A DNA stretch of 64,000 nucleotides from a phage. Made by a program: the position numbers and the translations under genes. This document shows, in pieces, positions 8,380 to 34,634 of the stretch; position 1 is the stretch's first letter, and the number at the start of each line of letters is the position of its first letter. The notes beneath the pieces were generated by a model. The model searched no databases, was not told the origin of the DNA, and saw only the letters and a program-made list of their open reading frames with translations. Location: NCBI GenBank assembly GCA_012813795.1, contig GCA_012813795.1_4087.1; one strand, given 5' to 3'.

Positions 8380-8388
8380 TAAAATCGT

Positions 8389-8412
8389 GGCGGCCTTCGG
8401 GTCGCCTTTTTT
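8389..8412 (+). terminator. rho-independent terminator
   Basis: Hairpin GGCGGCC-TTCG-GGTCGCC followed by TTTTTT, after the gp6-like gene. Confidence 0.65.
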
Positions 8413-8460
8413 ATAGCATAAATAAATCAAATGAATGAACGAATTTATGGAGTCCTATAC

Positions 8461-11400
8461 ATGACTAATAATTTTAAGTTTCTACCAACTAAAACGGCAG
8501 AAGCAGTACAACAGAAGCTTTTCATTAAAAGATTACCTGAATGGATGCAAGGCTTAGAAGACATTCAAAAGGTTAGTGATGATGTAATTCAACAATGGTT
8601 CAATCCAGCGGATAATGAAATCGTTGATGGATATATTGGTGATATGGGTTCTCCTGCTGCATCTGCTAAGATTTTCCTTGACGAATCAACCGTTGAACGT
8701 CAGCTATATCAATTATCAACAGCATATGTGTCTCGTAATGATGACACAAGCATTCGTTCGCTTCAATTTTATGATGATTTGGTTGGCTACATGGAACACT
8801 ATGGCACGTTAACTTCAAACGAGAGCCGTCTATTTTCTGGTAAGTTCTATTCTTGGACACCACCAATTAACCCAAACAAAATGACCAACTATAGTTCTTA
8901 TTTGTGGGATAGTAAAAATAGTTTTGGTATCACATCACCTGACTTTATTGTTATGGAACGTGGTGCTGATAACGGTAACACTTGGTCACTACAGAACTTT
9001 TGGTATACTATTGGACAAACCCTAGAAGATGGTACAGTACTAACTGCTGACATGACGCAGGATACTCGTTTTATTCGTGCACAAGCACCAATCATCGAAT
9101 ATAATAAAAACATCGAATTAATCAACTACGGAACAAATTTCCGTGGTATTGTTGACCTATTCTCTGATACAGTTAAACCAGAAGATATCGTTCAAAAGGA
9201 CGTTAACGATGGTATTCGTATCGATGGTATCATTCCACAAGATGGTATGCGTATTCTATTCACCAGTATCGGTAACGTTGGTGAAAACAACCGCATTTAT
9301 AAAGTTTTTATAAAGAAAATGCAAGATGGTTCTCGTACCTATGGTTTGGCACTAGATCCTGACGAGGAATCAGAAGAACGCCCAAGTGGTGAACCCCATA
9401 ACGGTGATGTAATTTTGGTGCGTGATGGTAATGTATATAAAAATACATCCATGTACTGGAATGGTGTTGATTGGGTTAGAGCACAAACCAAATCTGGTAT
9501 CAACGTGTTCCCACAATTCCAATTGTATGACCGTGATGGTTTCAAATTAAACGACACTACTATGTATCCATCAAGTAATTTCGTTGGATCATCACTATTT
9601 GGTTTCAAAATTAACTATAATTATGGCACTGATAAAGTATACGGTTATAATATTGAATTAGGTAATTATAATTACTACATGTACGAAAACTTTCTTCAAA
9701 GTGTTCGTTATACATATGATCATTTGGGTGTTGAAACAGAAATTTCTGGATTATATTACTATAATGTAGTTGGTAAAGATAATGAACTTCACCTTAAGAC
9801 CGATTGGGTTCGCTCAAAGGAAGATTCAAAACAATTTGTTAAACAAACACCACAAATCGAACATACTGATATGTATCGTGTATTCAATACTGTATTTGAA
9901 ATGGAAAACTTCAAAACTCCATTAGAAGGTATGTATGCATATGTCATTGAAGTTGATCGTACCTATCAATATTACAAAGAAGAACGTCAAACCTATATGG
10001 ATTGGCATGTAATTAGTGGTGAAGGTATTCAAAGTGAACGTTTCAATCGCACATTTGAATTAGCCCAGAAAATTATTGATGGTAAGAGTACTGAAATCAT
10101 TGAAATTCAAGTTGATGGTGTGGATGTAACCGATTATACACGTCATGTATATAATAACAAGGTTCAAAGCATCACTTTAGGGGAAGACGTTACTCTTAAA
10201 GATGAATCAGTAATTCAAATTAGAACATATAGCAGTACGGAAGTACCAAATAAAGAGTTGGGTGCATATGAAATCCCAATTAACTTACAAAATAACCCAT
10301 ACAACGATAATATTCTTTATATCAACCAAAGTAATTTTACATTACATTTTAAAGATATCATTCAAAAGAATATTACCAGTGGTTCAGTTGATGATTTCAA
10401 TGACTACGAAGAGCGTTTGTCTAAAGGTTTAGTAGATAACTCTGTAGGTACTAAGATTATCCAAAACGAAGCATCTATGCTACCGTTAATGGCACATTCT
10501 GCAAATGAAGACATTGACCTATTTGAATCTGTATTGTTTATGCAATCAGAGTACTTTCGTTTTGTAAACAAGTTCAATACACAAATGATTCGTTTGTATA
10601 ATGAGAACCCAGCAAACTTCTTAGCTAATAATGCTTCTAATATTGTTGATGAAATTCTAACAATTATTAATATGGGTCATGATAATACATTCCCATTCTA
10701 TTATGACAACGTGGCAAGTACTTCTGGTTTCATTCGTGCTTTTGTACCACCAACTCCACAGTTCTTAGGTATTTTAAAAGCTCACGTTCCAGAAAAAGCA
10801 ACATTTTTGAATGCTGGTAGTAAGCAAAGCTGCTATAACATCAGCCATACTGGTGCAATCACCAAAGCATACCGTGTAATTAACGGTGTTGATAAAATGG
10901 ATGACGTTATATATGAATTAGAAAATCGAATCTTCAATAGTATTGATGTTATTTTCAAAGATGAAGATTACCAACCTAAGCTAGATGCTTCTGACCTTTT
11001 CCCTACTCCGTATTTTAGAGATACAGAGTATAATGATGAAGAGAAGAAGAACTTACTACTACGTGGTTACATTAACTTCATCGCAACCAATGGTATCAGT
11101 AACAGTTCGCATGATTATGATCCAAATAACTGGATGACTTGGAATTATACTGGAACTTATTACATTGTTAATGGTCAACAAACACAAATACCAGCACGTG
11201 GTTCATGGCGAGCAATCTACACTGACCAATTTGGTACATATCGCCCAGCAACCCATCCGTGGGAAATGTTTGGATTCTCCCAACGTCCGGTTTGGTGGAA
11301 CCAAGAGTACGAACCAACAGCAGTTCAAGTTGGTGAACGCGACAGTGATGTTGTTTATGTATATGAGGCATTGGTTCTCAACGAACAAGGTAACATGGTC

Positions 11401-14400
11401 CCTAGTGGGTTGTGGGATGTTGGTAATGAGAAAGGTGATAGCTCAACTGGAACTATCTTATTTGGTGCACGTAAAGGCCAATATGACAAGTATAAACGTT
11501 TTGGTACACAACCATTCAAGATCACCAAAACAGGCAAGCAGACTGCTTCTGGTGTTGATATTTGCGTTATTGAGTACATTGCACCTGAAGTATTAGGTCT
11601 TGTTTATGGTAGTTTGAATCATCGTGCTGAACCTTGGACCTATGGTGACATGGGTGACATGGAATTCACATACATGAACACCTCAATGTTCGCATATGAT
11701 GAATTAATGTTGTTATTCAAAGCTAAACCTGCACAATTCACCAACTATTTCTGGAATACTCGAAATAATACATTAAAAACTGTATCTGGTAACGAACCAC
11801 AGTTTTTATATGGTGATACTCGTTTACGTTTGAACTTTAACAGTGATACAATAGTACATGGTGAGAATAGCACTCGTGTTATTGGTTATCAAATGATTGT
11901 TAGTAACTATTTGATGTATCAAAACAAAAACATCACTACTAAGTACGGTGAAGTTGTTCGTTCTTCTCATATTAATGTTGGTCATAAACTAGGTGGATTC
12001 ACTAAAGCTGACCAATTAACATTTACGTCAGAAGCAACTGGTCTAATTTCACAAGAAAACCAATCTATCGGGTTAGTTCGTTCTAATAATATTAGAAATG
12101 AGCAAATGAGTGCAATTAAAATTACTTGGACTGGTAGTGCTTACCAAATTGATGGTTATGATTTAGTTTCTGCAACATTCAATTATAAATTGCCTGTTAA
12201 AAACGGTCATAAAGTAACTTTGAAAGTTGATAATCGTAATGTTGTTCATTATAATGAGTGGAAAAATGATGCATCAATCCCTTACGGAACTTTGATGAAT
12301 ACATTCCAAGAAGTTTACACATTTATTTGTGGTTATGGTGAGTATCTCAAACAACATGGTTGGATTTTTGAAGAAGTTGATGAATCTGGTATCCAACAGG
12401 ACTGGAATACAATTGCAAAAGACTTTTTAATCTGGAGTCAACAACAATTGAGTACTGGTGAATTCATTTCATGTACTCCATCTGCAATTAAAGCCAAATT
12501 TGGTACAGATTTTGGTTCAGTACAGTCAATTACACAAAATAGTGGTGGTGTTTGGTCACTATTAGATGATTCAAACCAAGGTATCCGTCAATTTGAGATT
12601 GAAACATCTCGTATTGGTAATATATTCACGGTGAGAACTACTGAAGAATCAAATAAACGCATGGCACTTATTCGTTTAAGTATCAGTTCATATGAACATG
12701 CTGTTATTTTTGATGATCAGACTATTTTCGGTGACTATATCTACGAACCAACCTATGGTGCAGTTCAAGAATTGATTAAATTGTATGGATATATCACTGG
12801 TTCATGGTCTGGTCGCTTACAAGCTCCTGGATTTATCATCCTAGAAGCTGGAACATTACCATCATTTGAAACATTGGTATCAAATTTCCAACAGTATTAT
12901 GATAATGAAACTCCAGTTAGTGATGTTCAATTGAATGAACTATCAAATCACTTAATTGGTTATCAGTCTCGCGATTACTTACAACGTATGATCACCAACG
13001 AGCCTGGTAGAATTGATTTCTATAAAGGTTTCATCCACGATAAAGGTACTAACCAAGTACTAGAAAAAGTACTACGTGTATCTAAATCATATAATACTGA
13101 TGAGTATAAAGCATTACAAGAATGGGCATTCCGAGTTGGTTCTTATGGTAACATTGATGGGGTTAAAAATCTTCAATTTAAACTAATTAATAATGAGTTT
13201 AAACAACAACCACAAATGATTTCGTTTGACCGCTATGCTGATAAGGTAGAGTCAGAGAATGAGATCGTATATTATGGTGAAATTGGTGAAGATTCACGCT
13301 GGATTAGTCGTCCTAAAGGTAAATTCTCATTACCTATGCGTAGTGGAAGAAGTGAGAACATCCAATTACCTAATATTGGCCCAGTAACCTTAGATGAAAT
13401 TGATTATACCACATTGAATTATGAAACGGCTAATCAAGATCGCATTAGTTACACGAATAACTTTGGCAAAATACCAACATCTGTTTGGATGTTCCAAGAT
13501 ATTAATAACGAATGGAATATATATGATTTGGTAGACACTGGTATTACAATGGTTTCCATTACACCAATAGAGAATAGCGACCCATATGCTGAGCAATATT
13601 GTAAAGTACTATTGTCTGATGACATCCCACTAATGGATGGTGATTATTACTATTTCGTTGATGAAACAAACTTTATGCCTGACGCACTACGTGAAGAAGG
13701 TCAATATTACACTTCTGGACTAAATCCAAAAGTTATGGTTGTGCCATTTGACACTTCTATCACTATTGACTTCTCAACTGTAGAATCAGCACCACGTTTG
13801 TATCGTTATGTTAGTAGATTCAGCACTCAACAAGAACGTGATGATTATATTGCTAAAAAATACAGTTACAGTGCACCTGAAAGTACTTTGTTTGACCGTC
13901 CTACTACGTATGATGAAAGAACAAACATCACTGCATTGTATTTGAATGTGTTTGACCCAATCAATGGTGTTATTCCTGGTGTAGCAATGCAAGATGTTGA
14001 TTTCATCTCCCCTGTTGATCCAGCACAATATAGCAGTAATGGTGAACTATTACAAGCATGGGGTGCTGAAAAGGTAGGTAAGGTATGGTGGAACACTAGT
14101 ACTGCATTCTATCTGGATTATACCCGTCCAATCTTTGATGAGGATGGAAACGTTGATGTAAAAGCAACTAATGAATATAAGCGTTATAATTGGGGTAAAT
14201 TATTACCACACAGTGTTATTGATGTTCTAGAATGGGTTAGTTCACCAGTAGAACCATACAACTGGGAAAAATATTGTGCAGAACAAGCCAATAAAAATAA
14301 AAACAACACCATGTATCTCCCAAGTGGGGTTGCGATGGATGATAACTATAGTTCATCTATGGAATATGATCCAATCACCGATACATATGTAGTTCGTTAT

Positions 14401-17400
14401 TATTTCTGGGTTCGTAATACAATTTATGTTCCACCAATGACTACTCGTAGTAAGTCTTGTACTGATATTGCACGTATTATTCAAGATCCAACACAATTGA
14501 ATGTTCCTTGGTTTGCACCTATTAACGAAAATAGTTTCATTCTAAGTAATATGCAATTTGAAGTTAATGATGATACAAGCATTTTGACAATTTCATATAG
14601 AAATGACAATATTGAAGTCCTGAAGCATGACCAATATCAACTTTGTAAAGAAGGTGATAGTTATGACTTTAACCCAGATATTTGGAATTCTCTATGGAAC
14701 TCACTAATTGGTCAAGAAACTACTTCAACTGGTGTTGTAAATGAAATAGTTTATCCTAAAGTTGAAACTGGTTTGGGTTCTAATAAAACTTGGTTCCAGA
14801 ATGTTATTGAAGCTCGTCGTGCGTTTGTTGAGAGTGCTAATAACTTTTACCGTTCACATAACATCACAACTAACAGTGTTGTTATGAATGATGTCTTTAA
14901 TGTTAAAACATTAAAAATGAACCCGAATGATATTACATTCCGTGTTCTATCATTTAACAATGAATTGGTAATTGCACCAGAAGACAACCGCTTCAAAGAG
15001 AATGATGCAGTATTTGTAAGTTCCATTGGAACATTACCAGCACCATTATCTTCAAGTTCTGTATATTTTGTTCACATTGATCCAAATGGATACATTCAAT
15101 TGATGAACAGTCCAAGCACAGTTGGTAGTACTGTCACAATCACTCTAGAAAATAGAGGCGAAGGTCAACACAAGATGATTAAACAAGCTGACTTCATTGA
15201 ATCACTTGGTACATCGTTGGATATGACACAGTACTGGAATCTAGCTGATTGGTACGATACTGGATACGATAGTAACACTGAATATACACAAGAAGTTAGT
15301 TTAGATGACGCAAACACTAAAAATTACCAAATTGGTGATATTATCCGTGTAACTGATAGTGATGGCGTTTGGACATTATACATCAAGACTGCATCTCGCA
15401 ATAATGTATACTGGAGAGCTATTGGACGTGAGAATAGTACTGTTGAATTGAATTCAATGTTATATTCTAGTTACAATGTTTATAATGATGATGGTTCTTT
15501 GAATTCTCATGAGGTTAACGTTCGTAATGCGTTAGCGTTGTTGAAAAATTCATTCGATTTATATCAAAGTAATATTGTATTTGATATGGTTAAGTACGTG
15601 CACACTGAACAAAGTGTTGTTGATTGGGTATTCAAAACCTCCTATATCTATATCGTAGGTTTGGAGCAATCACTAGTACAGAACTACTCAAATGACAACT
15701 TGATTAATCAAATTGTTGAGTACTTCGAGGAAGTTAAACCATACAGAACCAAAATCCGTTCTCAAATCGAACAGAAAACTTCTGATGATGATTTGATTAA
15801 TGGTATTAGTAATGACCTTGACCCAGATGGCTATATTTTAGTTGATGGTGTGTGGGTTAAGACTGAAAAAGACATTTGGGATTTAGAATATGCACAATTC
15901 AATGATGTAACTCAACGTTGGGAAAAGATTGGTTCACTACCAAGTGACTTTATCACACCTAATAGACGATTCCAAGAAATAGACGTTATTATGCATTATG
16001 ATAATATTCAATGTGAACAGTATGATAGTAATTATACAATTGATGAGTTGAAATCAACCAATAGTAAGTATCAATCCAACGAGGCTGATGTAGGTAATAA
16101 TTATGAATTACAGAGATATGTTTATACATTCCCTGAATATGATAATAATACCTTAATTTCACAAATTGGTATTGAAATGACTACCAAATATTCAGATTTG
16201 GATATTAGTAATGGTGTTATTAAAGGAATTGATGCATGGTATAAAGCACATTCAACTGATATCGCATCAACTGACCAATTTACTACTGATTTGGAGCAGG
16301 TAACTGCTGATACAAACAATAGTAATATTTTAGAAGATGTTAAAAAATATATTCAATATAATACATTAGCAACTCGTGTGAAAATGTTTAATAATATATC
16401 TGATGATATGGTTTCTAATGAGATTGGTTGTCCGTTTAAGGGTACAAACTATAATGATAATCCTAATACTCGCCTCCCATTCGGGTTTAGTGCAAGTAGT
16501 GATTATAACTATGGTTATTTTGAGATTAGTATTGAACTATATGAAAAATATGTCGATATGATCAAGAAAAATCACCCAGAGTTTACAAACGAAGACCAAA
16601 TTCGTAACATTCTTGAAATAGAATATGGTGTTTATTGCTACAAGTATGATACCACATTAAATGACCGTTATTATTCTGATACCGTTCATGTTTTATCTGC
16701 TATGCGACAAACATTTAATAAGAATATTCTAGATCATTATTATGTTGCTAGAGAAATCTTAAGTAATCGTTCAGTTGAGAAGTATGCTTTTGTTATGATG
16801 CCAAGAAAGTATGTGTATGTTGTGAATGCGGCGGGTGAATATCTACCGATTCCTGAAAGTTACAGCATATCTGATTTCATGGAAGACTTGTTCATAACAA
16901 CCGGAGAATCAGTTGTATTGGCTGAAATTGATTTAAATGATTTACCACAAGACCAGAATAATCCTATGTATTCTGCATACATTGAAGTACTGGAAAGTAT
17001 TAATACCGCGAAATATTTCAATGATATGAACGCATTCGATAACTTGGCATTGGAATCACAAACCAAGTCCATTAAATGGGAAGTTAAAGATAGTGAGATT
17101 GATCCTTATATCATCGACATTTCTGAACTAAACCCATCAGGAAGAACAATGGCACAATTGCGTTTCACTGTTGATGGTTATGGTTTCGATGAAGTTGCTC
17201 AAGAGCAATTAAAAGACACGAGTAGATTCCAAATTGAGGGTATGATCGTACAGAACCCTTACAATATGTCAGAAGCAATTGTAAGTATTCCATCATATGA
17301 TATTGTCATCGAGAATATGGGTAAAGATGTGTTTAAAGATTCAGAAAAATACTTCTTCCCAATTTCAGAAATTAAAACAATTACTGAAATCAAGGTTCAT

Positions 17401-18438
17401 GATGAAGGATTGAAAAATGGTGATAAGGTTGTGATTTTCACACCAGATGGTGAAGATTATGTACGATTCCAAGATGGTGAATGGGTAACTATACTAAGTG
17501 CTAGTAAAATCCAAACCTCCAAAAAACCAAAACTGTACACTGTGCGTGTATTGGGTAACGGAAACGTTGAGTTGGTTGATGGTAACGGTGTTGCATTGAT
17601 GTTTGATAGTGTAACTAAGCGTGAAAGTAATGAGCGTTTTTATACATTATCAATGAACTTAGTTAGAATCCGCACTTTCCAAGACCCTGAGTTTGATGAC
17701 AATGGCCTTAAACTATATGAAAATAATCGTCATTATAGTATACATGCATTGAACTATGAAGTATTCTATGACGAAACATTATATGGTGGTAAATTCAATG
17801 ATGGTATCACATCTGATGAGATTGATTTGTGGTTAGTTTCCAATGAGATTTTTGAAGTTGATGGTATTACAATTGATAATGGTTATAATCAACCAATCAC
17901 TGGTAAAGGTGTTCTAGGTGAACTAGTACGAGCTAAAATGACTGATGGTATTGAAATCACTGTATTTGAATACGATGTTGATGTTATTCAACCAGTACTA
18001 AGTTATGATCGCGTGTGGCAGTATGCACAACCAGTGGTCAATAACACGTTCATCAAAGAGGTAGGATGTAATGTTATTAACATTACAACTGTTGAAGATG
18101 AGGCAATCACTTATGTTGCTAAACCTCGTTCAATAAGCCCATATATCATTACTGATTCAGTACTGTCAGGTGCTGCGGCACAGAATGATGATATTATTGT
18201 GGTTGGATATGAGAAGGTTCAGGTAAGAAATACTGATCGTCTATTACGTGGTGTCATGTATAGTGCGGAGCATAATTTCACAAAAGGAACTTCTTATAGC
18301 TTCAATGGATTGAACTTAGGAAGCATTGATAAGTTTACTCAATATCAAAACTTCTATCCACCAATTCCATTAGAGACATTCAGAAATGGATTGTCAATTA
18401 CTGGAACCGATATCGAAAAACTTTTGAATATTCAATAA
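8461..18438 (+). CDS. giant virion-associated structural protein (about 3300 aa), function unassigned
   Basis: Single uninterrupted ORF; ORF track begins at ATG 8431 but ATG 8461 has a GGAG RBS and lies downstream of an ATAAATA late-promoter-like box (8418-8424). Last gene of the baseplate operon, followed by a strong terminator. Confidence 0.6.
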   Translation: MTNNFKFLPTKTAEAVQQKLFIKRLPEWMQGLEDIQKVSDDVIQQWFNPADNEIVDGYIGDMGSPAASAKIFLDESTVERQLYQLSTAYVSRNDDTSIRSLQFYDDLVGYMEHYGTLTSNESRLFSGKFYSWTPPINPNKMTNYSSYLWDSKNSFGITSPDFIVMERGADNGNTWSLQNFWYTIGQTLEDGTVLTADMTQDTRFIRAQAPIIEYNKNIELINYGTNFRGIVDLFSDTVKPEDIVQKDVNDGIRIDGIIPQDGMRILFTSIGNVGENNRIYKVFIKKMQDGSRTYGLALDPDEESEERPSGEPHNGDVILVRDGNVYKNTSMYWNGVDWVRAQTKSGINVFPQFQLYDRDGFKLNDTTMYPSSNFVGSSLFGFKINYNYGTDKVYGYNIELGNYNYYMYENFLQSVRYTYDHLGVETEISGLYYYNVVGKDNELHLKTDWVRSKEDSKQFVKQTPQIEHTDMYRVFNTVFEMENFKTPLEGMYAYVIEVDRTYQYYKEERQTYMDWHVISGEGIQSERFNRTFELAQKIIDGKSTEIIEIQVDGVDVTDYTRHVYNNKVQSITLGEDVTLKDESVIQIRTYSSTEVPNKELGAYEIPINLQNNPYNDNILYINQSNFTLHFKDIIQKNITSGSVDDFNDYEERLSKGLVDNSVGTKIIQNEASMLPLMAHSANEDIDLFESVLFMQSEYFRFVNKFNTQMIRLYNENPANFLANNASNIVDEILTIINMGHDNTFPFYYDNVASTSGFIRAFVPPTPQFLGILKAHVPEKATFLNAGSKQSCYNISHTGAITKAYRVINGVDKMDDVIYELENRIFNSIDVIFKDEDYQPKLDASDLFPTPYFRDTEYNDEEKKNLLLRGYINFIATNGISNSSHDYDPNNWMTWNYTGTYYIVNGQQTQIPARGSWRAIYTDQFGTYRPATHPWEMFGFSQRPVWWNQEYEPTAVQVGERDSDVVYVYEALVLNEQGNMVPSGLWDVGNEKGDSSTGTILFGARKGQYDKYKRFGTQPFKITKTGKQTASGVDICVIEYIAPEVLGLVYGSLNHRAEPWTYGDMGDMEFTYMNTSMFAYDELMLLFKAKPAQFTNYFWNTRNNTLKTVSGNEPQFLYGDTRLRLNFNSDTIVHGENSTRVIGYQMIVSNYLMYQNKNITTKYGEVVRSSHINVGHKLGGFTKADQLTFTSEATGLISQENQSIGLVRSNNIRNEQMSAIKITWTGSAYQIDGYDLVSATFNYKLPVKNGHKVTLKVDNRNVVHYNEWKNDASIPYGTLMNTFQEVYTFICGYGEYLKQHGWIFEEVDESGIQQDWNTIAKDFLIWSQQQLSTGEFISCTPSAIKAKFGTDFGSVQSITQNSGGVWSLLDDSNQGIRQFEIETSRIGNIFTVRTTEESNKRMALIRLSISSYEHAVIFDDQTIFGDYIYEPTYGAVQELIKLYGYITGSWSGRLQAPGFIILEAGTLPSFETLVSNFQQYYDNETPVSDVQLNELSNHLIGYQSRDYLQRMITNEPGRIDFYKGFIHDKGTNQVLEKVLRVSKSYNTDEYKALQEWAFRVGSYGNIDGVKNLQFKLINNEFKQQPQMISFDRYADKVESENEIVYYGEIGEDSRWISRPKGKFSLPMRSGRSENIQLPNIGPVTLDEIDYTTLNYETANQDRISYTNNFGKIPTSVWMFQDINNEWNIYDLVDTGITMVSITPIENSDPYAEQYCKVLLSDDIPLMDGDYYYFVDETNFMPDALREEGQYYTSGLNPKVMVVPFDTSITIDFSTVESAPRLYRYVSRFSTQQERDDYIAKKYSYSAPESTLFDRPTTYDERTNITALYLNVFDPINGVIPGVAMQDVDFISPVDPAQYSSNGELLQAWGAEKVGKVWWNTSTAFYLDYTRPIFDEDGNVDVKATNEYKRYNWGKLLPHSVIDVLEWVSSPVEPYNWEKYCAEQANKNKNNTMYLPSGVAMDDNYSSSMEYDPITDTYVVRYYFWVRNTIYVPPMTTRSKSCTDIARIIQDPTQLNVPWFAPINENSFILSNMQFEVNDDTSILTISYRNDNIEVLKHDQYQLCKEGDSYDFNPDIWNSLWNSLIGQETTSTGVVNEIVYPKVETGLGSNKTWFQNVIEARRAFVESANNFYRSHNITTNSVVMNDVFNVKTLKMNPNDITFRVLSFNNELVIAPEDNRFKENDAVFVSSIGTLPAPLSSSSVYFVHIDPNGYIQLMNSPSTVGSTVTITLENRGEGQHKMIKQADFIESLGTSLDMTQYWNLADWYDTGYDSNTEYTQEVSLDDANTKNYQIGDIIRVTDSDGVWTLYIKTASRNNVYWRAIGRENSTVELNSMLYSSYNVYNDDGSLNSHEVNVRNALALLKNSFDLYQSNIVFDMVKYVHTEQSVVDWVFKTSYIYIVGLEQSLVQNYSNDNLINQIVEYFEEVKPYRTKIRSQIEQKTSDDDLINGISNDLDPDGYILVDGVWVKTEKDIWDLEYAQFNDVTQRWEKIGSLPSDFITPNRRFQEIDVIMHYDNIQCEQYDSNYTIDELKSTNSKYQSNEADVGNNYELQRYVYTFPEYDNNTLISQIGIEMTTKYSDLDISNGVIKGIDAWYKAHSTDIASTDQFTTDLEQVTADTNNSNILEDVKKYIQYNTLATRVKMFNNISDDMVSNEIGCPFKGTNYNDNPNTRLPFGFSASSDYNYGYFEISIELYEKYVDMIKKNHPEFTNEDQIRNILEIEYGVYCYKYDTTLNDRYYSDTVHVLSAMRQTFNKNILDHYYVAREILSNRSVEKYAFVMMPRKYVYVVNAAGEYLPIPESYSISDFMEDLFITTGESVVLAEIDLNDLPQDQNNPMYSAYIEVLESINTAKYFNDMNAFDNLALESQTKSIKWEVKDSEIDPYIIDISELNPSGRTMAQLRFTVDGYGFDEVAQEQLKDTSRFQIEGMIVQNPYNMSEAIVSIPSYDIVIENMGKDVFKDSEKYFFPISEIKTITEIKVHDEGLKNGDKVVIFTPDGEDYVRFQDGEWVTILSASKIQTSKKPKLYTVRVLGNGNVELVDGNGVALMFDSVTKRESNERFYTLSMNLVRIRTFQDPEFDDNGLKLYENNRHYSIHALNYEVFYDETLYGGKFNDGITSDEIDLWLVSNEIFEVDGITIDNGYNQPITGKGVLGELVRAKMTDGIEITVFEYDVDVIQPVLSYDRVWQYAQPVVNNTFIKEVGCNVINITTVEDEAITYVAKPRSISPYIITDSVLSGAAAQNDDIIVVGYEKVQVRNTDRLLRGVMYSAEHNFTKGTSYSFNGLNLGSIDKFTQYQNFYPPIPLETFRNGLSITGTDIEKLLNIQ

Positions 18439-23715: not shown

Positions 23716-24180
23716 ATGAATGAGGCAGTAGGAGCAATATTTTTATCTAAAAGTACTGGTCATATGATGCTCAATCTTAGATCTGAAAGCAGTACCTATT
23801 CAAACAACTGGGCTTTTGTTGGTGGAAAACTCGAATACAACGAATCCCCTTTGCAAGCTTTACATCGTGAAATACGAGAAGAATTGGGAGATTCGTTACC
23901 TGATATAATTGATATTATACCCTTTGATGTATTTTGTACAAAGAATGGTAAGTTCAAATATTATTCTTTCGTTGTTGTTGTTGAAAATGAGTTTGTTCCT
24001 ATTCTCAATAAGGAAAGCTCTGGATATGCTTGGGTTAAAATTGGCTCATGGCCTAAACCACTACACCCTGGAGCTAAAAACACTTTATTAAATGTTAATT
24101 TGATGAAAGATTTTTATTCTTTGTGGGAAAGTATAAACGCTGGTACGCAATTTGTCAACAGCCTACCATATAGATATTAA
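23716..24180 (+). CDS. Nudix hydrolase
   Basis: Canonical Nudix box GGKLEYNESPLQALHREIREELG (G-x5-E-x7-REUxEExGU); RBS AAGGAGGA upstream; followed by a bidirectional terminator. Confidence 0.8.
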   Translation: MNEAVGAIFLSKSTGHMMLNLRSESSTYSNNWAFVGGKLEYNESPLQALHREIREELGDSLPDIIDIIPFDVFCTKNGKFKYYSFVVVVENEFVPILNKESSGYAWVKIGSWPKPLHPGAKNTLLNVNLMKDFYSLWESINAGTQFVNSLPYRY

Positions 24181-26546: not shown

Positions 26547-27674
26547 ATGACAATTTCATTCAACAATGGGTCTGGCGGTTCATGTAACAATTCTGGTATT
26601 AAGAGTTTAGTAATTAACTCTGCTGGTCATTTGATTGTAACATTCGCTGATAATACAATACAAGATTTGGGTCTAGTCGTTGGACATGACGGTACTAATG
26701 GTAAAAATTTCTATCCTGATGATGTTGGTATGGAAATACCAGACGGTACATTTGCAGTTGATAAACCAGAAGGTTGGTGTTATTTAAGTCTAGCAAATGG
26801 AACTGCAAAACTATATTTTAAAACAAATGATGCTGGTGTAGAACCAAGTACTTGGAACACAGTAGAATTTGGTAAAGGTGATACTGGTGCACCAGGTAAA
26901 TCATTTAAAATTGATTCTTCTGGTCCTGTTTTTCCAACCACTGGTCTATTTGACCAATATACTTTCTATAATACTTCCGATGGTAAAGTGTATTTTTATA
27001 ATCAAAAAGCTGGTTCATGGAGTAATGGTATTGATTTCCGTGGTGAACAAGGTCCACGTGGTCGTTTCCATATTGACAGTGACGGTCCTGCTTTCCCAAG
27101 TATTGATAACTTACCAGAAGATTATTGCTTTTATAACACGACTGATGGAAAACTATATTACGTAGATATTAATAAGCAAACCACCCCTCCAACAAAAGAA
27201 TGGAGTGAAGGTATTGAGTTCCGTGGTAAAGATGGTGAACCTGGTCCAGAAGGTAAGCAAGGTGATACGGGTCAGAATGGTAAAGATTCAATTATCGTTG
27301 TAAACACGATTGATCATTCATGGACCAACGCAGTATTGGTAATCGGTACATGCCCAGCAGGTTATGTAGTAACTAATATTGAAGTTGATATCACCCAAGC
27401 TTATATTGACCCTGTAACTGAAATGCACATTCGTGTAGGTGGGGAAGCACAAGAAGATATCGGCGGTACTATTATTGCACCAGTTGATTATTTTGATATC
27501 AACCGTGCACTACGCTTTATCGTTAATGAAACAAACCATGAACCGTCAGCAGAAGATGAAATCATTGCTTGTGTTTTTAATGAATCAGTTAATAACAGTA
27601 ATTATGGTCAAATGAAAGTAATTTGTACTCTAGCATGGCAAGCACCAATCCAACCAATTGAAAACAACATCTAA
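26547..27674 (+). CDS. tail fiber-like protein with short collagen-like G-X-Y triplet runs and duplicated tail-fibre-repeat modules
   Basis: GKGDTGAPGK, GEQGPRG, GKDGEPGPEGKQGDTGQNGKD; two similar modules (SGPVFPT...FYNTSDGKVYFY...W and DGPAFPS...FYNTTDGKLYY...W); GATAAATA box at 26504-26511, RBS AAAGGGA. Confidence 0.6.
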   Translation: MTISFNNGSGGSCNNSGIKSLVINSAGHLIVTFADNTIQDLGLVVGHDGTNGKNFYPDDVGMEIPDGTFAVDKPEGWCYLSLANGTAKLYFKTNDAGVEPSTWNTVEFGKGDTGAPGKSFKIDSSGPVFPTTGLFDQYTFYNTSDGKVYFYNQKAGSWSNGIDFRGEQGPRGRFHIDSDGPAFPSIDNLPEDYCFYNTTDGKLYYVDINKQTTPPTKEWSEGIEFRGKDGEPGPEGKQGDTGQNGKDSIIVVNTIDHSWTNAVLVIGTCPAGYVVTNIEVDITQAYIDPVTEMHIRVGGEAQEDIGGTIIAPVDYFDINRALRFIVNETNHEPSAEDEIIACVFNESVNNSNYGQMKVICTLAWQAPIQPIENNI

Positions 27675-27687
27675 GGGGGATTGATTA

Positions 27688-28056
27688 ATGGCAGTTTTTT
27701 CTAACTTTGAAGGGACAATTTTACACAAACAATCTGGGGGTAAATATGTAGTAACAGTAGCTGGTGCATTCGTAGGAAAATATGAACAGCTTAAAGCAGC
27801 AGTAGTTGGTGCTAAAACTATTAGAACACATAACACTGCATGGGGTACAAACCAATATGCTAAAGCAGCAGGTACAAGAATTGTAATTCCTGGTGCTGGT
27901 GAAAATGGAACTGATCTCCACACTCATATAACACGAGCTACATACGTGGTCAACTCGGTATTTTGCATTGATATAGCAGACGAAATAAAAACTGCTTTCC
28001 CTGATGAGACTCCATTGTTAGCCGAATCCCCAATTACATACATTACACTTCCATAA
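27688..28056 (+). CDS. hypothetical protein sharing an N-terminal decapeptide with the next gene
   Basis: 122 aa; begins MAVFSNFEGT, next gene begins MAVFSNLEGT; RBS AAGGGGGA. Confidence 0.5.
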   Translation: MAVFSNFEGTILHKQSGGKYVVTVAGAFVGKYEQLKAAVVGAKTIRTHNTAWGTNQYAKAAGTRIVIPGAGENGTDLHTHITRATYVVNSVFCIDIADEIKTAFPDETPLLAESPITYITLP

Positions 28057-28073
28057 TAAGGAGATATTTCAAA

Positions 28074-28976
28074 ATGGCAGTTTTTTCTAATTTAGAAGGA
28101 ACTTTGAAGAAGAAATTTATTCTAGGTAAAAATGGTGCACAATTCACGACAAATGGTGATATTGTGCAAATCCAAGATTATTCTGGAACAAGACTTCTTC
28201 CAGTTTCTGCTGGTGACCCAACCGCAAACACACACCTAGTAACCTTAGCATATTTTAATGCTCATGGTGGTAGTGGTGCAAGTGGTATTTTGCGTGGTGA
28301 TATCGCTCCTGCTGATACACTAGGAACTGATGGTGATGTTTATTTTATGGTTGATGCAACCAACATCGTTCAAATATATATTAAAGACCTTGGGATTTGG
28401 AAACCATTTAATGGTGGTGGTCCAGTAACCGATAGTCCTTATGTAACTTCATTCTCGGTCCCTGTTGCAGCATTTGTTCTTATTCCTGGAACAGTCGATG
28501 AATATACATATACCATTCCTGAATCACAACATGACCGTGGTCGTGACATTTTAGTTCAAATGGAAGATACACCAACAGACGGTAATCCAAATATTCGTAG
28601 TGTGGTTAATTCCGAAATTACATTGTCTGGATTTGGGGATATTACAATTAAAATGCTTGGCCTCCCAGATGGTATTACTGAGGTTAAAGTTAATATTATA
28701 GGAGCAACCGCTATGACTACCCCATACGGAAAATTGATTAACAAAGCAGACTGGATTGCTGCTGCTGATAAATTCACTTACACTGTCACTGCTGATACAC
28801 ATAAACAAAGTCCTGATTCTTTGTACGTGGCAATCTATGGTAATGATGTACCTGGTTCAACAGCATCTGCACCGTTTGATTTGGTATTCGTTGATACACA
28901 AATTGATACAGATGGTAATGTTACTTTTGTATCTGATGAACAATTCAGTGGTAAGATTGTTATCGCTGGGAAATAA
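28074..28976 (+). CDS. putative tail fiber / receptor-binding protein
   Basis: 300 aa; N-terminus MAVFSNLEGT shared with the preceding ORF; RBS AAGGAGA; followed by a hairpin terminator. Confidence 0.5.
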   Translation: MAVFSNLEGTLKKKFILGKNGAQFTTNGDIVQIQDYSGTRLLPVSAGDPTANTHLVTLAYFNAHGGSGASGILRGDIAPADTLGTDGDVYFMVDATNIVQIYIKDLGIWKPFNGGGPVTDSPYVTSFSVPVAAFVLIPGTVDEYTYTIPESQHDRGRDILVQMEDTPTDGNPNIRSVVNSEITLSGFGDITIKMLGLPDGITEVKVNIIGATAMTTPYGKLINKADWIAAADKFTYTVTADTHKQSPDSLYVAIYGNDVPGSTASAPFDLVFVDTQIDTDGNVTFVSDEQFSGKIVIAGK

Positions 28977-28983
28977 GATTTAT

Positions 28984-29015
28984 GCCAGGTATGGTGTCTT
29001 AGTGCCTGGCTTTTT
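28984..29015 (+). terminator. hairpin terminator (large loop)
   Basis: GCCAGG ... CCTGGC stem followed by TTTTT. Confidence 0.45.
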
Positions 29016-29090
29016 CATATATACAAATAAATAATTACATATTAACACAGTTAATAAGTATTTTAATTTTACCCAAATGGAGGGAAATGA

Positions 29091-32000
29091 ATGTACTCGA
29101 TAAAAACAGATCTAGCAGTAACTGGTAATACTAATGTTGGTAAAGAATTATCAGTTAAAGGTAATGCGGTCTTCGATAAAAACGTAACCATTAAGGGGAC
29201 CGTTAGTTTCGCTGATGCTACCTTCACTGCAATTACAGTAGATCAAGCAACAATCAACACAACACTCGATGTTACAGGCAAAGCGTCACTGAAGGGTGGA
29301 ATGGATGTACTTGGTAATACAGTTATTGGTAATACTACTGCTGGTTCCGATACAGCAACTATTAATTCCAATGCTACTTTTAATGGCACTTCTACTTTTG
29401 CCAAAGATATTACACAAACATCAGGAAAAGCAATTTTTCAAGATACCACCACTTCTGCATTAGAAGTTAATGGTACAACAACATTAAATGGTAACCTCAC
29501 TGCTGCGGCAGCAACCACTGCAAGCTTTGATAAATTAACAGCTAATGAAGCAACCATTGCAACTGTATCAGCAACTGATATTACTGCAACTGGTGCAACC
29601 GTTGAGAATCTAACTGTAACTGGTAAATTAGATGGTGATTTCACACTAGGTGATGTAAACACTGACAATTTAGTTGTTAATAAATTATCAACACTAAAAG
29701 GTGCAGTAACTCTAGAATCAAACATCATTGGTACTAATTCCGTAGCCAACCTTAAAGCTGTATCTTTAGGTTCTAACGCTGCGGATACAACTACCCGTGT
29801 TGGTTTTGCATATACAGCACCAGGTCTACGCCCAACTGTAATTCTACAAAACGAAGTGCAGTCCGAGTTAATGACCCCAGCAAATCTAACAGTACTTAAA
29901 ACTGCTACATTTGGTGATGTATCAGCAGCAACCAATGGTATTACCGCAAAAGGCTTGAACTTATTTGATTACCTAACTCTTTCTGGTAACTCAATTCAAG
30001 ATCCAAATACACCTATTCTACGTGTAACTAAAGGTAAAACACAATTAACTGACCTACAAGTTGATGGAACTACTAATATTACTGGTAAAACTACTGTTGG
30101 TGATTTGGATATTACTGGAACACTATCAGGTAACTTTGTACTAAGTGATATTACTGCGGATAATTTAGTTGTTGAAAAACTAACTACACTAAAAGGTGCA
30201 TTAAACCTAGAATCTAATATTGTTGGTTCAACTGCGAATGCTAATTTAAAATCTGTCACTTTAGGTGGAAACGTAGCAGACACGAATGCTAAAGTTAACT
30301 TTACATATACTGCTCCTGGTTTACGTCCAACTGTAATTCTACAAAACGAAGTACAGTCCGAATTAATGACCCCAGCAAATCTAACAGTACTTAAAACTGC
30401 TACATTTGGTGATGTATCTGCATCTACCTACGGTATTACAGCAAAAGGTTTGAACCTATTTGATTATTTGAAAATAACTGGTAATGCGGTACAAGATCCG
30501 AATACCTTAACTCTCGATGTTGGTGGTAAAGCACAATTCAAAGACGTTAATTTCACTGGTACAGTTACTGGTTTTGTTCCAGACATTTCTGGTCAAGATA
30601 TTACACCTAAAGATGTTATTGCTTCTGGTAATATTAGTGGTGTTAATCTAGATGCTTCTGGTACACTAACAGTTGGTGGGGATTCCGTTCTAAAAGGCAC
30701 AACTATAACTGATTTGACTGTTACTGGAACTACAACTGGTATTACACTAGCTGGTCAAGACATTACTCCTAAAGATGTAACTGCATCTGGTAATGTTAAA
30801 GGTGTTGACGTAACTGCATCTGGAAACCTAAAAGTTAACGGTACTACCACATTGGCTGGTAACACGGTAGTTGATGGTTTATTTGAAGTTGTTGGTCAAA
30901 CAACCACTGTTAAAGATTTAAACGTTACTGGTACACTATCTGGTGCTGCAATTAAAGCAAACGTTGATGGTCTAGACATTCTACCTAATTCTGTAACCAC
31001 AACTGAAGAAGTTGCAGTGGGGACTAATCTAAGTGTTGGTGGAAACGCACTCTTTAGTGGCTTGAAAGTTGAAGTTACTGGTAAAGTTACTGGTGTTGGT
31101 TCTGATGCATTAGAAACTGGTTCAATTGAATCTGACGGTACTATCACTGCCCCAAATATCACAGCAACTACTAAAGTGACCGCAGCTTCCGCACAAATTA
31201 CCGGAACCGGAACTGGTCTAAGTGTAGATCATAATGCATCAGTTGGTGGTGATTTGAATGTTACTGGAACTTTAACTGCTGGCGTTATTGACCTACACGA
31301 TGCAGAAGTAACTGTTAAAAAACTTAATGTATCTGAAAGTGCACATGTTGGTGGTGACCTAACAGTTGACGGTACAGTTGACCTAAGTGCAGCTATTGTA
31401 ACTGTTAAATCTCTAACTAGTACTGGTCCAGTAATTAGTAAGGATACTACTGGAACTAACATTTTACCAAAATTACAAAGTACTGATATTACTACAACTA
31501 ACAGTACAACTGGTACAGCAACAGTAACTACAGCAAATATTTCTACATTAAATGTTACTGGTGAAAGTACATTGGCTGCTGTTTCTGCTGTTTCTGTTAC
31601 CACTCCTACTATTGTGAATACCGATGGTATTAATTTAGAAAATGACACAATTGCACATGGTAACCTAACTGTTAAAGGTACATTTACCCCTGAAGGTGGA
31701 TTAGATTTAAGCCCAGTTGATATCAGTTCTAAATCATTAACAACAACTGAAGGTGCAACCATTGGTGGAAGCTTAACTGTTGATGGTGCAATTAATGCTG
31801 CTGCGGCAGATCTAACTGTTAAATCACTAACATCTTCTGGTGTTATCACTGTTACTGAAAATACTGAACCAAGTATTCTACCAAAACTAACAAGTACTGA
31901 AGCAACCGCTGGTAAATTGAATGTTACTGGTGATGCAACAGTCGGTGGTAAAGCGACCGTTTCTGGTGCACTTGAAGTTACTGGTGCTTCAACATTTGGT

Positions 32001-34634
32001 AACGCAGTAACTGTAAACGTCGGTGGTATTACTGCTAAAGGTGGCTTGACTGTTGCTTCTGGAAACTTGAAAGTTGCTGCTGCGGCAGTGGTTGATGGTT
32101 CAGTAAGTGCTGGTTCATACACAAGTGCTGGAGATAAAATAACACTAGCTAAACCAACAGATGTTACTGGTGATTTGCACGTTGAAGGTGCTTTCACTGC
32201 AACTTCCGTTGATTTTAGTGATACTAATTTGACTGTTAAATCACTACAAGTTAATAATGACGTTACTATTGATGGTAACTTAACTATCAAAAATGCTGAG
32301 TTGGAAACTAACACATTAGCAAGTACTACAAGTACTACTGTTGGTACTGACCTAATTCTAACTACTGGTACAATTACTGGTGCTCCAATAATTTCTGGTG
32401 CTACTACACTAAGTTCAACACTACATACAGTGGGTGCTGCAACTTTTGATAGTACTGTTGATGTTGGTGGTAAAATTACTTCTAAATCAATCCAAGTAAG
32501 TGATACTGGTGTTGGTGTAGCTGTTGATAATGATGCAACTGTTGGTGGTTATTTGACAATTGGTGAAACATTAGGTGTTACTGGGTTAAGTACTCTATCT
32601 GGTGGGGTTGATGCAGGTTCTGCATTAATTAAAACTACTGGTGAAGTTCAATCCGCAACTCTTCAAACTTCTGGTAAAGCAACACTAGCAAGTGTTGATG
32701 TTTCAGGTGATGCAGTTGTTACTGGTGACCTAACTGTTAAAGGTGCATTTACACCTGAAGGTAGCCTAAACATAGGTTCTGCTGTTCTAAACGTTGAAGG
32801 TATTGATGCAAGTGCTAACTTAACTGCACTCGGTTCTGTAACTGCTGGTACTACACTAACTGTTACTGGTGTTTCAACTCTAAATGGTGGTACTAACACT
32901 ACTACTCTTTCAACAAGTGGTAAAGCTACATTAAGTAGTGCGGAAGTTACTGGTGCTCTAAGTGCTGGTGGTGCTTTAACTGTTACTGGCACTACAAATC
33001 TAACTGGAAAACTAACCGCTGGTGAAGCTGCTCTCAGTTCACTAACAGTTTCTGGTGATGTTACCATTAATGGAACACTAAACCCTGGAACATTGGATCT
33101 ATCTACTACTCCAGTTGATGCGAAAAGCTTGAAATCCAGAGAAACACTAGAAGTTACTGGCCTAAGCACACTAACTGGTGGTTTGGCTGTTAGTGCAAAT
33201 GCCGCAATCACTGCTGCTGGTGACATTACAGGTACGACAATTACCACAACTGGTAAAGGTACATTTGGTAGTGCAGAAGTAACTACTGGTTTGACTGTTG
33301 GTGGTGCTTTGGTTGTTAATGGTGCATCCGTGAACATCTCTGATGCTTCTACTGTGACTATGCCTAAAGCTGATATTTCTGCGAAAGGTATTATCATCGG
33401 TACTAAAGTTAGTTCAAGATCGGAAACTATCCAATTTGTTGGTGATACTTATATTGGTAATGACCTATTTGTTGCTGGTAATATTAACGGTTCAGTAGAT
33501 TTGGATGGTCAGGATATTTCCCTGAACTCATTAACTTCTAATACCACAATTCACGCAGTTGAGGATATTACTACTGATGAAGATATGCACGCACGTGCTG
33601 CAACATTCGGTGCAAAAGGTTCAACATCTAACAGCCTAACTGTTAATGGTAACGCAGTAACTACTGGCGACTTTACGGTTACTGGTAAGATTATTGGTAC
33701 ACTGGACCAATCTGCAAGTGCAGTCGAAGTTAAATCTCTAACTTCTACAACCTTTATCGCTGCTAACACAACCCTTACCGTTGGTTCAACAATCACTGCT
33801 GAAGGTTTGAGTACATTGAAAGGTGGTATTGTAACTAATGGTGCTACAATCAACGCTGGTGCTGGTGCTATCACCACAACTGGTGATGTTTCTGGTGCAA
33901 ACGTTAATGTATCTGGTGCAGTATCAACTGCAACTATTACAACTTCTGGCCTAGCAACTATGGCAAGTGCTAAGATTAACACTACTCTAGCAGTTACTGG
34001 TGCAACTACACTATCTGATGTTGTTACTATCGGTAAGAAACTAACTGTTAGTACTGGTGGTATCGAAATCACTGCGGGTGGCTTCAATGTAGTTGCGGGT
34101 GGTGCAGCAATTACTGGTGCTACTAACCTTAAAGGTGCTGTAACACTAGGTTCTGCGTCTGCTGATGCAATCACAGTTACTGGTACATCTTCATTTGCTG
34201 AAAATGCAACATTTGCTAAAGATGTAACTATTGAAGGTACACTACATACTGATATTGCTGATTTAGTAACTGAAAGTGTAACTACTAAAAAGTATGCTGT
34301 TACACCTGCTGCTAAAGTTACTGCTTCTGGTGTGGCTCCGTCTGAAGGGACATGGACACCTGATGGTCAATCAAATGTGTATTATATCACACTTGACCAA
34401 GCAACAACTACTCTTGGTCCAATTAACGGATTGATTGGAAGTGGGAAGGCTGGTTCTTACTATATCTACGTACAACAAGATGCAACTGGTGGACGTGAAT
34501 TTACCACTGATGGTACTTATGCAGTAGTAGGTGGTGAGATTAATAAAACACAAAATACAGTTAGTATCATTCAGTTGATTTATGATGGATACAGCCCAGT
34601 AGTAGATATGTTTATAGCTCAACGTACTGCTTAA
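29091..34634 (+). CDS. long tail fiber-like protein, highly repetitive (1847 aa)
   Basis: T/G/A/V/L-rich fibrous composition with recurring TVTG / LTV / TGxT motifs; internal tandem duplication of about 165 aa; RBS GGAGGG; AATAAATA box at 29025-29032. Confidence 0.7.
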   Translation: MYSIKTDLAVTGNTNVGKELSVKGNAVFDKNVTIKGTVSFADATFTAITVDQATINTTLDVTGKASLKGGMDVLGNTVIGNTTAGSDTATINSNATFNGTSTFAKDITQTSGKAIFQDTTTSALEVNGTTTLNGNLTAAAATTASFDKLTANEATIATVSATDITATGATVENLTVTGKLDGDFTLGDVNTDNLVVNKLSTLKGAVTLESNIIGTNSVANLKAVSLGSNAADTTTRVGFAYTAPGLRPTVILQNEVQSELMTPANLTVLKTATFGDVSAATNGITAKGLNLFDYLTLSGNSIQDPNTPILRVTKGKTQLTDLQVDGTTNITGKTTVGDLDITGTLSGNFVLSDITADNLVVEKLTTLKGALNLESNIVGSTANANLKSVTLGGNVADTNAKVNFTYTAPGLRPTVILQNEVQSELMTPANLTVLKTATFGDVSASTYGITAKGLNLFDYLKITGNAVQDPNTLTLDVGGKAQFKDVNFTGTVTGFVPDISGQDITPKDVIASGNISGVNLDASGTLTVGGDSVLKGTTITDLTVTGTTTGITLAGQDITPKDVTASGNVKGVDVTASGNLKVNGTTTLAGNTVVDGLFEVVGQTTTVKDLNVTGTLSGAAIKANVDGLDILPNSVTTTEEVAVGTNLSVGGNALFSGLKVEVTGKVTGVGSDALETGSIESDGTITAPNITATTKVTAASAQITGTGTGLSVDHNASVGGDLNVTGTLTAGVIDLHDAEVTVKKLNVSESAHVGGDLTVDGTVDLSAAIVTVKSLTSTGPVISKDTTGTNILPKLQSTDITTTNSTTGTATVTTANISTLNVTGESTLAAVSAVSVTTPTIVNTDGINLENDTIAHGNLTVKGTFTPEGGLDLSPVDISSKSLTTTEGATIGGSLTVDGAINAAAADLTVKSLTSSGVITVTENTEPSILPKLTSTEATAGKLNVTGDATVGGKATVSGALEVTGASTFGNAVTVNVGGITAKGGLTVASGNLKVAAAAVVDGSVSAGSYTSAGDKITLAKPTDVTGDLHVEGAFTATSVDFSDTNLTVKSLQVNNDVTIDGNLTIKNAELETNTLASTTSTTVGTDLILTTGTITGAPIISGATTLSSTLHTVGAATFDSTVDVGGKITSKSIQVSDTGVGVAVDNDATVGGYLTIGETLGVTGLSTLSGGVDAGSALIKTTGEVQSATLQTSGKATLASVDVSGDAVVTGDLTVKGAFTPEGSLNIGSAVLNVEGIDASANLTALGSVTAGTTLTVTGVSTLNGGTNTTTLSTSGKATLSSAEVTGALSAGGALTVTGTTNLTGKLTAGEAALSSLTVSGDVTINGTLNPGTLDLSTTPVDAKSLKSRETLEVTGLSTLTGGLAVSANAAITAAGDITGTTITTTGKGTFGSAEVTTGLTVGGALVVNGASVNISDASTVTMPKADISAKGIIIGTKVSSRSETIQFVGDTYIGNDLFVAGNINGSVDLDGQDISLNSLTSNTTIHAVEDITTDEDMHARAATFGAKGSTSNSLTVNGNAVTTGDFTVTGKIIGTLDQSASAVEVKSLTSTTFIAANTTLTVGSTITAEGLSTLKGGIVTNGATINAGAGAITTTGDVSGANVNVSGAVSTATITTSGLATMASAKINTTLAVTGATTLSDVVTIGKKLTVSTGGIEITAGGFNVVAGGAAITGATNLKGAVTLGSASADAITVTGTSSFAENATFAKDVTIEGTLHTDIADLVTESVTTKKYAVTPAAKVTASGVAPSEGTWTPDGQSNVYYITLDQATTTLGPINGLIGSGKAGSYYIYVQQDATGGREFTTDGTYAVVGGEINKTQNTVSIIQLIYDGYSPVVDMFIAQRTA
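29622..30525 (+). repeat. intragenic tandem duplication (period 495 bp, about 165 aa) inside the long fiber gene
   Basis: Protein segments GKLDGDF...QDPNT and GTLSGNF...QDPNT are collinear; a core of about 95 nt (29832-29926 vs 30327-30421) is identical except for two substitutions, while the flanks are clearly more divergent. Confidence 0.85.

Follow-up and report, generated by a model that had tools for sequence, protein, structure and literature searches.

The window, by which we mean the whole 64,000-nucleotide stretch of DNA that was analysed, is part of the genome of a jumbo coliphage (genus Asteriusvirus, PBECO4/121Q/RaK2-like group). Over positions 1-60309 it is collinear with Escherichia phage A4, a 355.5-kb member of Asteriusvirus (ON286972), at 96-97.5% identity, and the region described below is 99.4% identical to that phage; more remote kin of this region are present in PBECO4, 121Q, UE-S1 and further RaK2-like jumbo phages. 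Within positions 1-60309, a single large indel relative to A4 was found, a gap of 1803 bp placed exactly at the start of the first of the two genes under study.

These two genes belong to a cluster of co-oriented tail genes, all on the plus strand. The cluster is headed by a gene for a 375-aa tail protein (26547..27674, from the ORF list; phrog_13565 'tail protein', E 1e-197). A Shine-Dalgarno-like AAGGGGG (27673..27679), read from the sequence and the same in A4, lies 8 nt 5′ of the ATG of the first gene, an ORF of 122 aa plus stop (27688..28056), and the 20 nt preceding this ATG are identical to A4. A 17-nt intergenic gap follows, in which a second Shine-Dalgarno sequence, AAGGAG, was read (28058..28063), and then comes the intact gene of a 300-aa virion structural protein (28074..28976; phrog_10468 'virion structural protein', E 3.7e-77, residues 1-300). 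A terminator-like hairpin made of a 9-bp stem and TTTTT closes the cluster (28984..29016; RNA fold -15 kcal/mol, z -2.66), and a terminator is annotated at the equivalent place in UE-S1. In A4, the order is the 375-aa tail protein, the 723-aa A4_571, and the 300-aa structural protein. Synteny extends further, the 375-aa tail protein preceding the gene or genes that carry the N-terminal module described below in A4, UE-S1, RaK2 and GAP32.

The first-pass annotation had noted that the two genes start almost identically and are otherwise unrelated, and had suggested a swappable pair of receptor-binding proteins attached to the virion by a shared ten-residue adapter. The resemblance is real. The two products start with MAVFSNFEGT (gene 27688-28056) and MAVFSNLEGT (gene 28074-28976), identical at 9 of 10 residues, and the gene starts are identical at 26/30, 31/45 and 40/60 nt. 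A degenerate 29-nt pattern that fits either start was found at exactly two places in the 64-kb window, where none is expected (100 shuffles). No third copy of the module was detected with the N-module HMM in any six-frame ORF of the window. The part of the claim that concerns the rest of the proteins is correct for the two ORFs of the window, for which BLASTP of the 122-aa against the 300-aa product gave an N-terminal match only (12/19 identical residues, E 4e-4). It fails for the full-length allele of the A4 type: there, A4_571 and its 300-aa neighbour are alike over ~109 N-terminal residues (39% identity, E 3e-18, BLASTP, A4_571 residues 1-106).

The comparison with A4 reveals what the first gene is made of. 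The corresponding slot of A4 is occupied by A4_571 (USL83647.1), a 2172-bp gene whose 723-aa product is annotated 'colanic acid-degrading protein'. The ORF of the window joins the first 32 nt of this gene directly to its last 337 nt, exactly 1803 bp, or 601 codons, being missing in between, so that the 122-aa product corresponds to residues 1-10 of A4_571 joined to residues 612-723. The retained 5′ end (27688..27719) encodes MAVFSNFEGT and is an exact common prefix with A4_571. The retained 3′ end (27720..28056, by alignment to A4_571) encodes the C-terminal ~112 residues and the stop codon. It differs from A4 at 3 of its 337 nt (99.1% identity), with no frameshift and no nonsense change. At the protein level, the last 112 residues are 98% identical to A4_571 residues 612-723, and 113 of 115 residues are identical when the C-terminal block is aligned to residues 609-723.

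Profile and structure comparisons gave the same picture. The phrog_6117 profile (colanic acid degradation) aligned to the 122-aa ORF over positions 594-709 of 711 only. Residues 104-722 of A4_571 match the phi92 gp150 colanidase (PDB 6E0V/6E0W, PHROG 6117; E 6e-216 with 6E0V), to which the C-terminus of the window ORF is thus homologous via A4_571. In 6E0V the beta-helix directly adjoins the C-terminal domain, and this domain is present in the 122-aa ORF, its A4 equivalents aligning to residues ~512-623 of the 6E0V chain. The beta-helix catalytic body (~residues 104-600 of A4_571) is absent. Relative to the full-length A4_571, the window ORF lacks residues 11-611: the beta-helix is missing as a whole, as are the neck and the greater part of the N-terminal module. 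The complete N-terminal module is absent as well, only HMM positions 1-12 aligning (E 0.0016), and the retained MAVFSNFEGT is the sole piece of the N-terminal anchor that survives in this gene. A Pfam search and a word-indexed homologue search with the 122-aa protein both returned no match, and an AF2 model of it, computed on a shallow alignment, had a pLDDT of 31.

The first slot of the cluster was found to hold a colanidase tailspike of ~713-723 aa, or a disrupted copy of it, in A4 and in all other Asteriusvirus records whose locus was inspected; the same-slot gene, intact or disrupted, is present in UE-S1, 121Q, JNE01, vB_Ec-M-J and a contig from another E. coli assembly (L007). The Asteriusvirus records among the matches listed align to nearly the whole 723-aa query, mostly as one full-length gene and in a few cases as a split one. 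The 122-aa protein falls into a 90% cluster of nine distinct sequences, eight of which are 723 aa long, and the short gene is therefore the derived, deleted allele. The reverse polarity, in which a short ancestral gene would have received a colanidase insertion, was discarded in view of the distribution of the full-length allele and of the continuity of C-terminal domain and beta-helix in 6E0V. The exact 122-aa protein was found on one contig only, where it is labelled 'hypothetical protein' by NCBI; this contig, of 357,761 bp and carrying EON7637228.1 / EFL4883656.1, represents an entire jumbo-phage genome within the assembly of an E. coli isolate. Taken at the level of sequence comparison, the first gene is very probably the remnant of a 723-residue colanic-acid-degrading tailspike that has undergone a 1.8-kb in-frame deletion.

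The junction was examined at the nucleotide level. The two megablast segments obtained against A4 overlap at 27710..27719, where the window reads AAGGGACAAT. The breakpoints fall in a 10-nt imperfect direct repeat, AAGG[G/A]ACAAT, whose two copies (AAGGGACAAT on the 5′ side and AAGGAACAAT on the 3′ side) are alike at 9 of 10 nt. Exact microhomology is limited to ACAAT (27715-27719), the crossover lying inside this pentamer, and one copy of the repeat is kept, at 27710-27719. The junction sequence had no match in IMG/VR, and its one match in the JGI metagenomes, in an unrelated gene, is a chance one. The region is absent among complete RefSeq E. coli genomes.

A probable sequence of events can be drawn from these observations. 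The ancestral cluster would have been composed of the 375-aa tail protein, a ~720-aa colanidase, the 300-aa structural protein and the terminator, with the last two proteins starting with the same module. As the sequence shows, an in-frame deletion of 1803 bp between the repeat copies then removed codons 11-611 of the tailspike gene, probably by replication slippage or by microhomology-mediated illegitimate recombination. Since start codon, ribosome-binding site and stop codon are all kept, translation should still yield a protein of 122 aa, in which the C-terminal domain follows directly on the first ten residues. Such a protein could presumably neither be mounted on the virion nor degrade colanic acid, because only 10 of the ~64 anchor residues are left and the beta-helix is gone. 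Virions should consequently be devoid of colanidase activity, and the phage would stay viable because the colanidase tailspike is an accessory one. With 3 differences from A4 in 337 nt and no further lesion, the retained sequence fits a recent deletion. Compared with other microhomology deletions in phage genomes, the event has the usual features, a short direct repeat with 5 exact nt of which one copy is left, and nothing about it is unusual; the frame happens to be kept in both this deletion and the one described next.

At least three other disruptions of the colanidase gene were found in public data. P0001 (contig L007) has lost 1536 bp, again in frame, between imperfect repeats of ~14 nt. 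JNE01 and its relatives have a 1-nt frameshift, and the resulting 141-aa truncated product is present on 28 contigs from several sources. In vB_Ec-M-J the gene is split inside an A-run, which could be a sequencing error. A word-indexed homologue search with the N-module profile returned six short proteins only, among them the L007 deletion allele and the JNE01 truncation. These other disruptions of the same gene support the view that the colanidase tailspike is dispensable. Both large deletions are in frame, for which the probability by chance is ~1 in 9.

The second gene is intact and carries the complete module, which aligns over HMM positions 1-114 (E 6.5e-50) and occupies aa 1-112 (28074..28409, delimited by BLASTP to A4_571, phmmer and family alignments). 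Its product is the orthologue of 121Q gp572, GAP32_221 and A4_570, and by sequence it is a full member of the 'virion structural protein' family of RaK2-like jumbo phages (phrog_10468). In an AF2 model of mean pLDDT 74.9, the module is followed by two beta-sandwich domains, these C-terminal domains reaching ~90; in the monomer, residues 1-11 have a pLDDT <50 and residues 12-65 are at 54-72. A Foldseek search of this model against the PDB gave no match with E < 1e-3. Members of the family (121Q gp572, GAP32_221, A4_570 and RaK2 ORF061w) share the same synteny, from tail protein to family gene to long tail fibre, and vary in their C-termini: the protein of the window has two beta-sandwich domains, some metagenomic homologues have a single one, and the RaK2 member lacks them. 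A published function was not found for this type of structural protein, and the RaK2 papers that were checked do not discuss ORF061w. The proposal that the second gene encodes an alternative receptor binder is not borne out by these data: its product is a structural protein conserved throughout the RaK2-like jumbo phages, with no evident host-specific receptor role.

The module itself was then delimited. It extends over ~64-110 aa and comprises an anchor (aa 1-64) followed by a single 'GDxY...W' repeat of hairpin type (aa ~65-112); unrelated fibre proteins contain this repeat in many copies, as judged from multi-stretch phmmer matches. The first ~22 residues (MA[VI]FSN[LF]xGT...LGKxG) are the most conserved part, and M1, G9 and T10 are nearly invariant in family alignments. 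No family covering the N-module was found in the copies of Pfam and NCBIfam that were searched. Colanidases of phi92-like phages match residues 86-722 only of A4_571, and the N-terminus of phi92-like gp150 differs from that of A4_571. The phi92-like matches starting at residue 86, the N-terminus of A4_571 is therefore a separate, lineage-specific module placed on a mobile enzymatic body.

In a tblastn search the module was present in 72 phage records, all of them RaK2-like jumbo phages, on proteins of ~286-300 aa; the Asteriusvirus phages of Escherichia and Salmonella have it twice per genome, the others once. A search for related loci with a narrow alignment returned RaK2-like jumbo phages only, with one module gene each. 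GAP32 has only the structural protein, of ~287 aa, and ORF061w of RaK2 consists of the module alone (115 aa, virion structural protein in RefSeq). When 1.84 billion representative proteins were searched exhaustively with phmmer, the module was found at the extreme N-terminus of 281-294-aa orthologues, of stand-alone forms of 113-115 aa and of the 723-aa colanidase. Two further proteins start with it as well: one of 780 aa, which has a pectate-lyase-like region together with a Peptidase_S74 chaperone (Pfam; contig L024), and a fibre of 1226 aa that weakly matches BNR (Asp-box) (Pfam; contig L025). The metagenomic contig L024 encodes in addition a second, different beta-helix tailspike with the module (58% identity over 64 residues). 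Both module-bearing tailspikes of L024 carry the precomputed label PF27114 'Phage_tail_beta'. No module shorter than ~60 residues was found among the other family members in the exhaustive phmmer search.

The expectation that other phages would show the module on different C-terminal bodies was thus confirmed. The module most likely mounts tailspike and structural protein on the same kind of site of the baseplate or fibre apparatus, an attachment role that we argue from analogy and from the distribution of the module. Multi-tailspike phages with conserved N-terminal anchors include RaK2 (gp526-gp534), CBA120 (TSP1-4) and Klebsiella phages (PMC6872550, PMC10253068). The logic is the same here, one N-terminal module combined with interchangeable enzymatic or fibre bodies, and L024 has two such tailspikes. 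At the sequence level, none of these anchor families has detectable similarity to the module, and in RaK2 only ORF061w matches it.

The near-identity of the two gene starts can now be accounted for. The starts look so similar because conservation of the module peaks in its first ~22 residues in all the proteins described; the two starts are the surviving tip of a common module, and do not represent an adapter of ten residues. The conservation of the decapeptide in distant members of the family points to purifying selection. Gene conversion between the two starts was also considered and discarded, the decapeptide being kept in distant members such as those of RaK2, L024 and L025.

How, then, should the pair be read? 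That the two genes form a functional pair of alternative receptor-binding proteins, mounted through the ten shared residues, appears extremely improbable. The decapeptide is highly conserved across the family, neither ORF has lost its start codon, its ribosome-binding site or its open frame, and the module heads different bodies in other phages, all of which would suit such a pair. However, the 122-aa ORF is not an alternative receptor-binding protein but the deletion product of a 723-aa tailspike, and it has no beta-helix. Its decapeptide is a deletion stump, 54 of the ~64 anchor residues having gone; the modules of the other family members found in the exhaustive search have at least ~60 residues. 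With a deletion remnant in the first slot, there is therefore no functional swappable pair at this locus. As the module heads unrelated bodies elsewhere, the adapter idea does hold for the ancestral gene pair, and it is valid for the module in general; it is in this window, where the first gene is broken, that it does not apply.

We also considered that the short gene might be an artefact of assembly or consensus calling, the real population being full-length or of mixed alleles. The allele is known from one contig only, its junction is missing from IMG/VR and has a single, chance counterpart at JGI, and jumbo-phage contigs of isolate assemblies may stem from heterogeneous carrier populations. 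Against this, a repeat of 5-10 nt is far too short to cause a collapse in short-read assembly, the junction is clean and in frame with perfectly collinear flanks, and another assembly has an independent deletion of this kind, so that an artefact seems very improbable. A different possibility is that the deletion is genuine and that the in-frame remnant was kept for a function, for example because its free C-terminal domain binds colanic acid or acts as a decoy, or because translation through it protects the expression of the downstream gene. The conservation of frame in the two large deletions and the 337 nt free of frameshift or stop, with only 3 substitutions, would be expected in that case. 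Yet statistics cannot be drawn from only two events, the downstream gene is provided with a strong AAGGAG ribosome-binding site of its own, the 99.1% identity to A4 is equally well explained by a recent deletion, and in JNE01 and vB_Ec-M-J the disruptions are frameshifts, in which the frame was lost. We regard such a retained function as very improbable. The reading we retain is that of a deletion remnant: what lies in this window is a broken accessory tailspike beside an intact structural gene, and not a working swappable pair.

A broader proposal, which we consider unlikely but worth stating, is that loss of the colanidase body is recurrent and selected rather than accidental, the slot being shed during persistence in the host while translation through it is kept. 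It is built on the four independent disruptions, on the frame of both large deletions and on the origin of the allele in a jumbo-phage contig of an isolate assembly. A carrier state, or hosts poor in colanic acid, are examples of settings in which such a loss could take place. In a smaller variant, the ultra-conserved first ~10 residues may be a docking strand, and the 122-aa remnant may still decorate the virion.

N-terminal anchors common to several proteins are well known, as are microhomology deletions, and the current understanding of either stands. What is new here is one allele and a newly delimited module, both of known kinds, and the finding is in that sense an ordinary one. Its practical value is modest and concerns the annotation of Asteriusvirus genomes, the choice of phages and the prediction of depolymerase activity. 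A colanic-acid depolymerase activity of phi92 gp150 is reported in literature cited by PMC13450770; the fEgEco12 and Sharanji papers make no mention of colanic acid. The 122-aa 'hypothetical protein' in this jumbo phage marks the predicted loss of a colanic-acid depolymerase, and this loss is expected to alter performance on mucoid or biofilm-forming E. coli relative to the near-identical phage A4. More generally, the N-module, a ~64-aa anchor starting with MA[VI]FSN[LF]xGT, tags proteins that are likely mounted at the same site in RaK2-like jumbo phages, and it provides a handle for finding accessory tailspikes, as well as fusion points for engineering.

Three more disrupted colanidase alleles were found in other Asteriusvirus genomes. 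The allele carried by L007, a contig from another E. coli assembly, has an in-frame deletion of 1536 bp and encodes a protein of 201 aa (6001-6606). At the locus of phage JNE01 (L008, 2137-4279), a 1-nt frameshift leaves a product of 141 aa consisting of the N-terminal module only, and this frameshift product is present on 28 contigs. In the third allele, at the locus of vB_Ec-M-J (L009, 2501-4643), the gene is split within an A8 run.

Sharing of an N-terminus between genes of one locus was also seen in an uncultured phage, on a metagenomic contig of 119.9 kb (L024, Logan SRR18476386), whose locus 8001-18343 encodes two different tailspikes (8001-10343, and 16571 to beyond 18343), both beginning with the MAIFS(N/S)L.GT module. 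Two fibre-like genes of ∼900 aa, located between them (10428-13136 and 13757-16516), have in common another N-terminus, MSKKI.G.L.V...GKN, which is distinct from the module of the tailspikes. We conclude that this single locus holds two separate shared-N-terminus pairs.

The second half of the N-terminal module, residues ∼65-112, is similar to a class of hairpin-like repeats found in the 375-aa tail protein encoded upstream (26547-27674), where 'G..Y...W' motifs are repeated; unrelated fibre proteins, too, contain many copies of such repeats. The 375-aa protein also contains a short collagen-like Gly-X-Y stretch, and its matches to the Pfam Collagen and WW families are weak. From aa ∼121 to aa 300 (28434-28976), the protein of 300 aa is predicted to be built of two similar beta-sandwich domains (AF2 pLDDT about 90). 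Only one such domain is present in the metagenomic homologues P0027 and P0031, and none in RaK2 ORF061w, a stand-alone module protein, so that domain number varies within the family.

Elsewhere in the window, the long-tail-fibre gene (29091-34634, 1847 aa) contains an internal duplication of ∼350 nt, with copies roughly 480 nt apart (29664-30011 and 30147-30466). Its translation gives two near-identical peptide blocks (...APGLRPTVILQNEVQSELMTPANLTVLKTATFGDVSA...), and cross-matches to phage A4 also reveal the duplication. A NUDIX hydrolase gene (23716-24180) lies inside the baseplate/tail structural cluster, a position conserved in A4, UE-S1, RaK2 and GAP32. The 64-kb comparison with A4 is collinear except for a ∼630-bp segment without alignment (60309-60938); this stretch has either been replaced locally or is hypervariable.

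The 357,761-bp contig encoding the exact 122-aa and 300-aa proteins is labelled 'Escherichia coli' at NCBI, and full-length sister alleles are found on contigs of 351-359 kb, which likewise bear the name E. coli or E. coli O157. No such jumbo-phage genome was found among complete RefSeq E. coli genomes. The labels of these contigs mean that whole jumbo-phage genomes are concealed within bacterial isolate assemblies.
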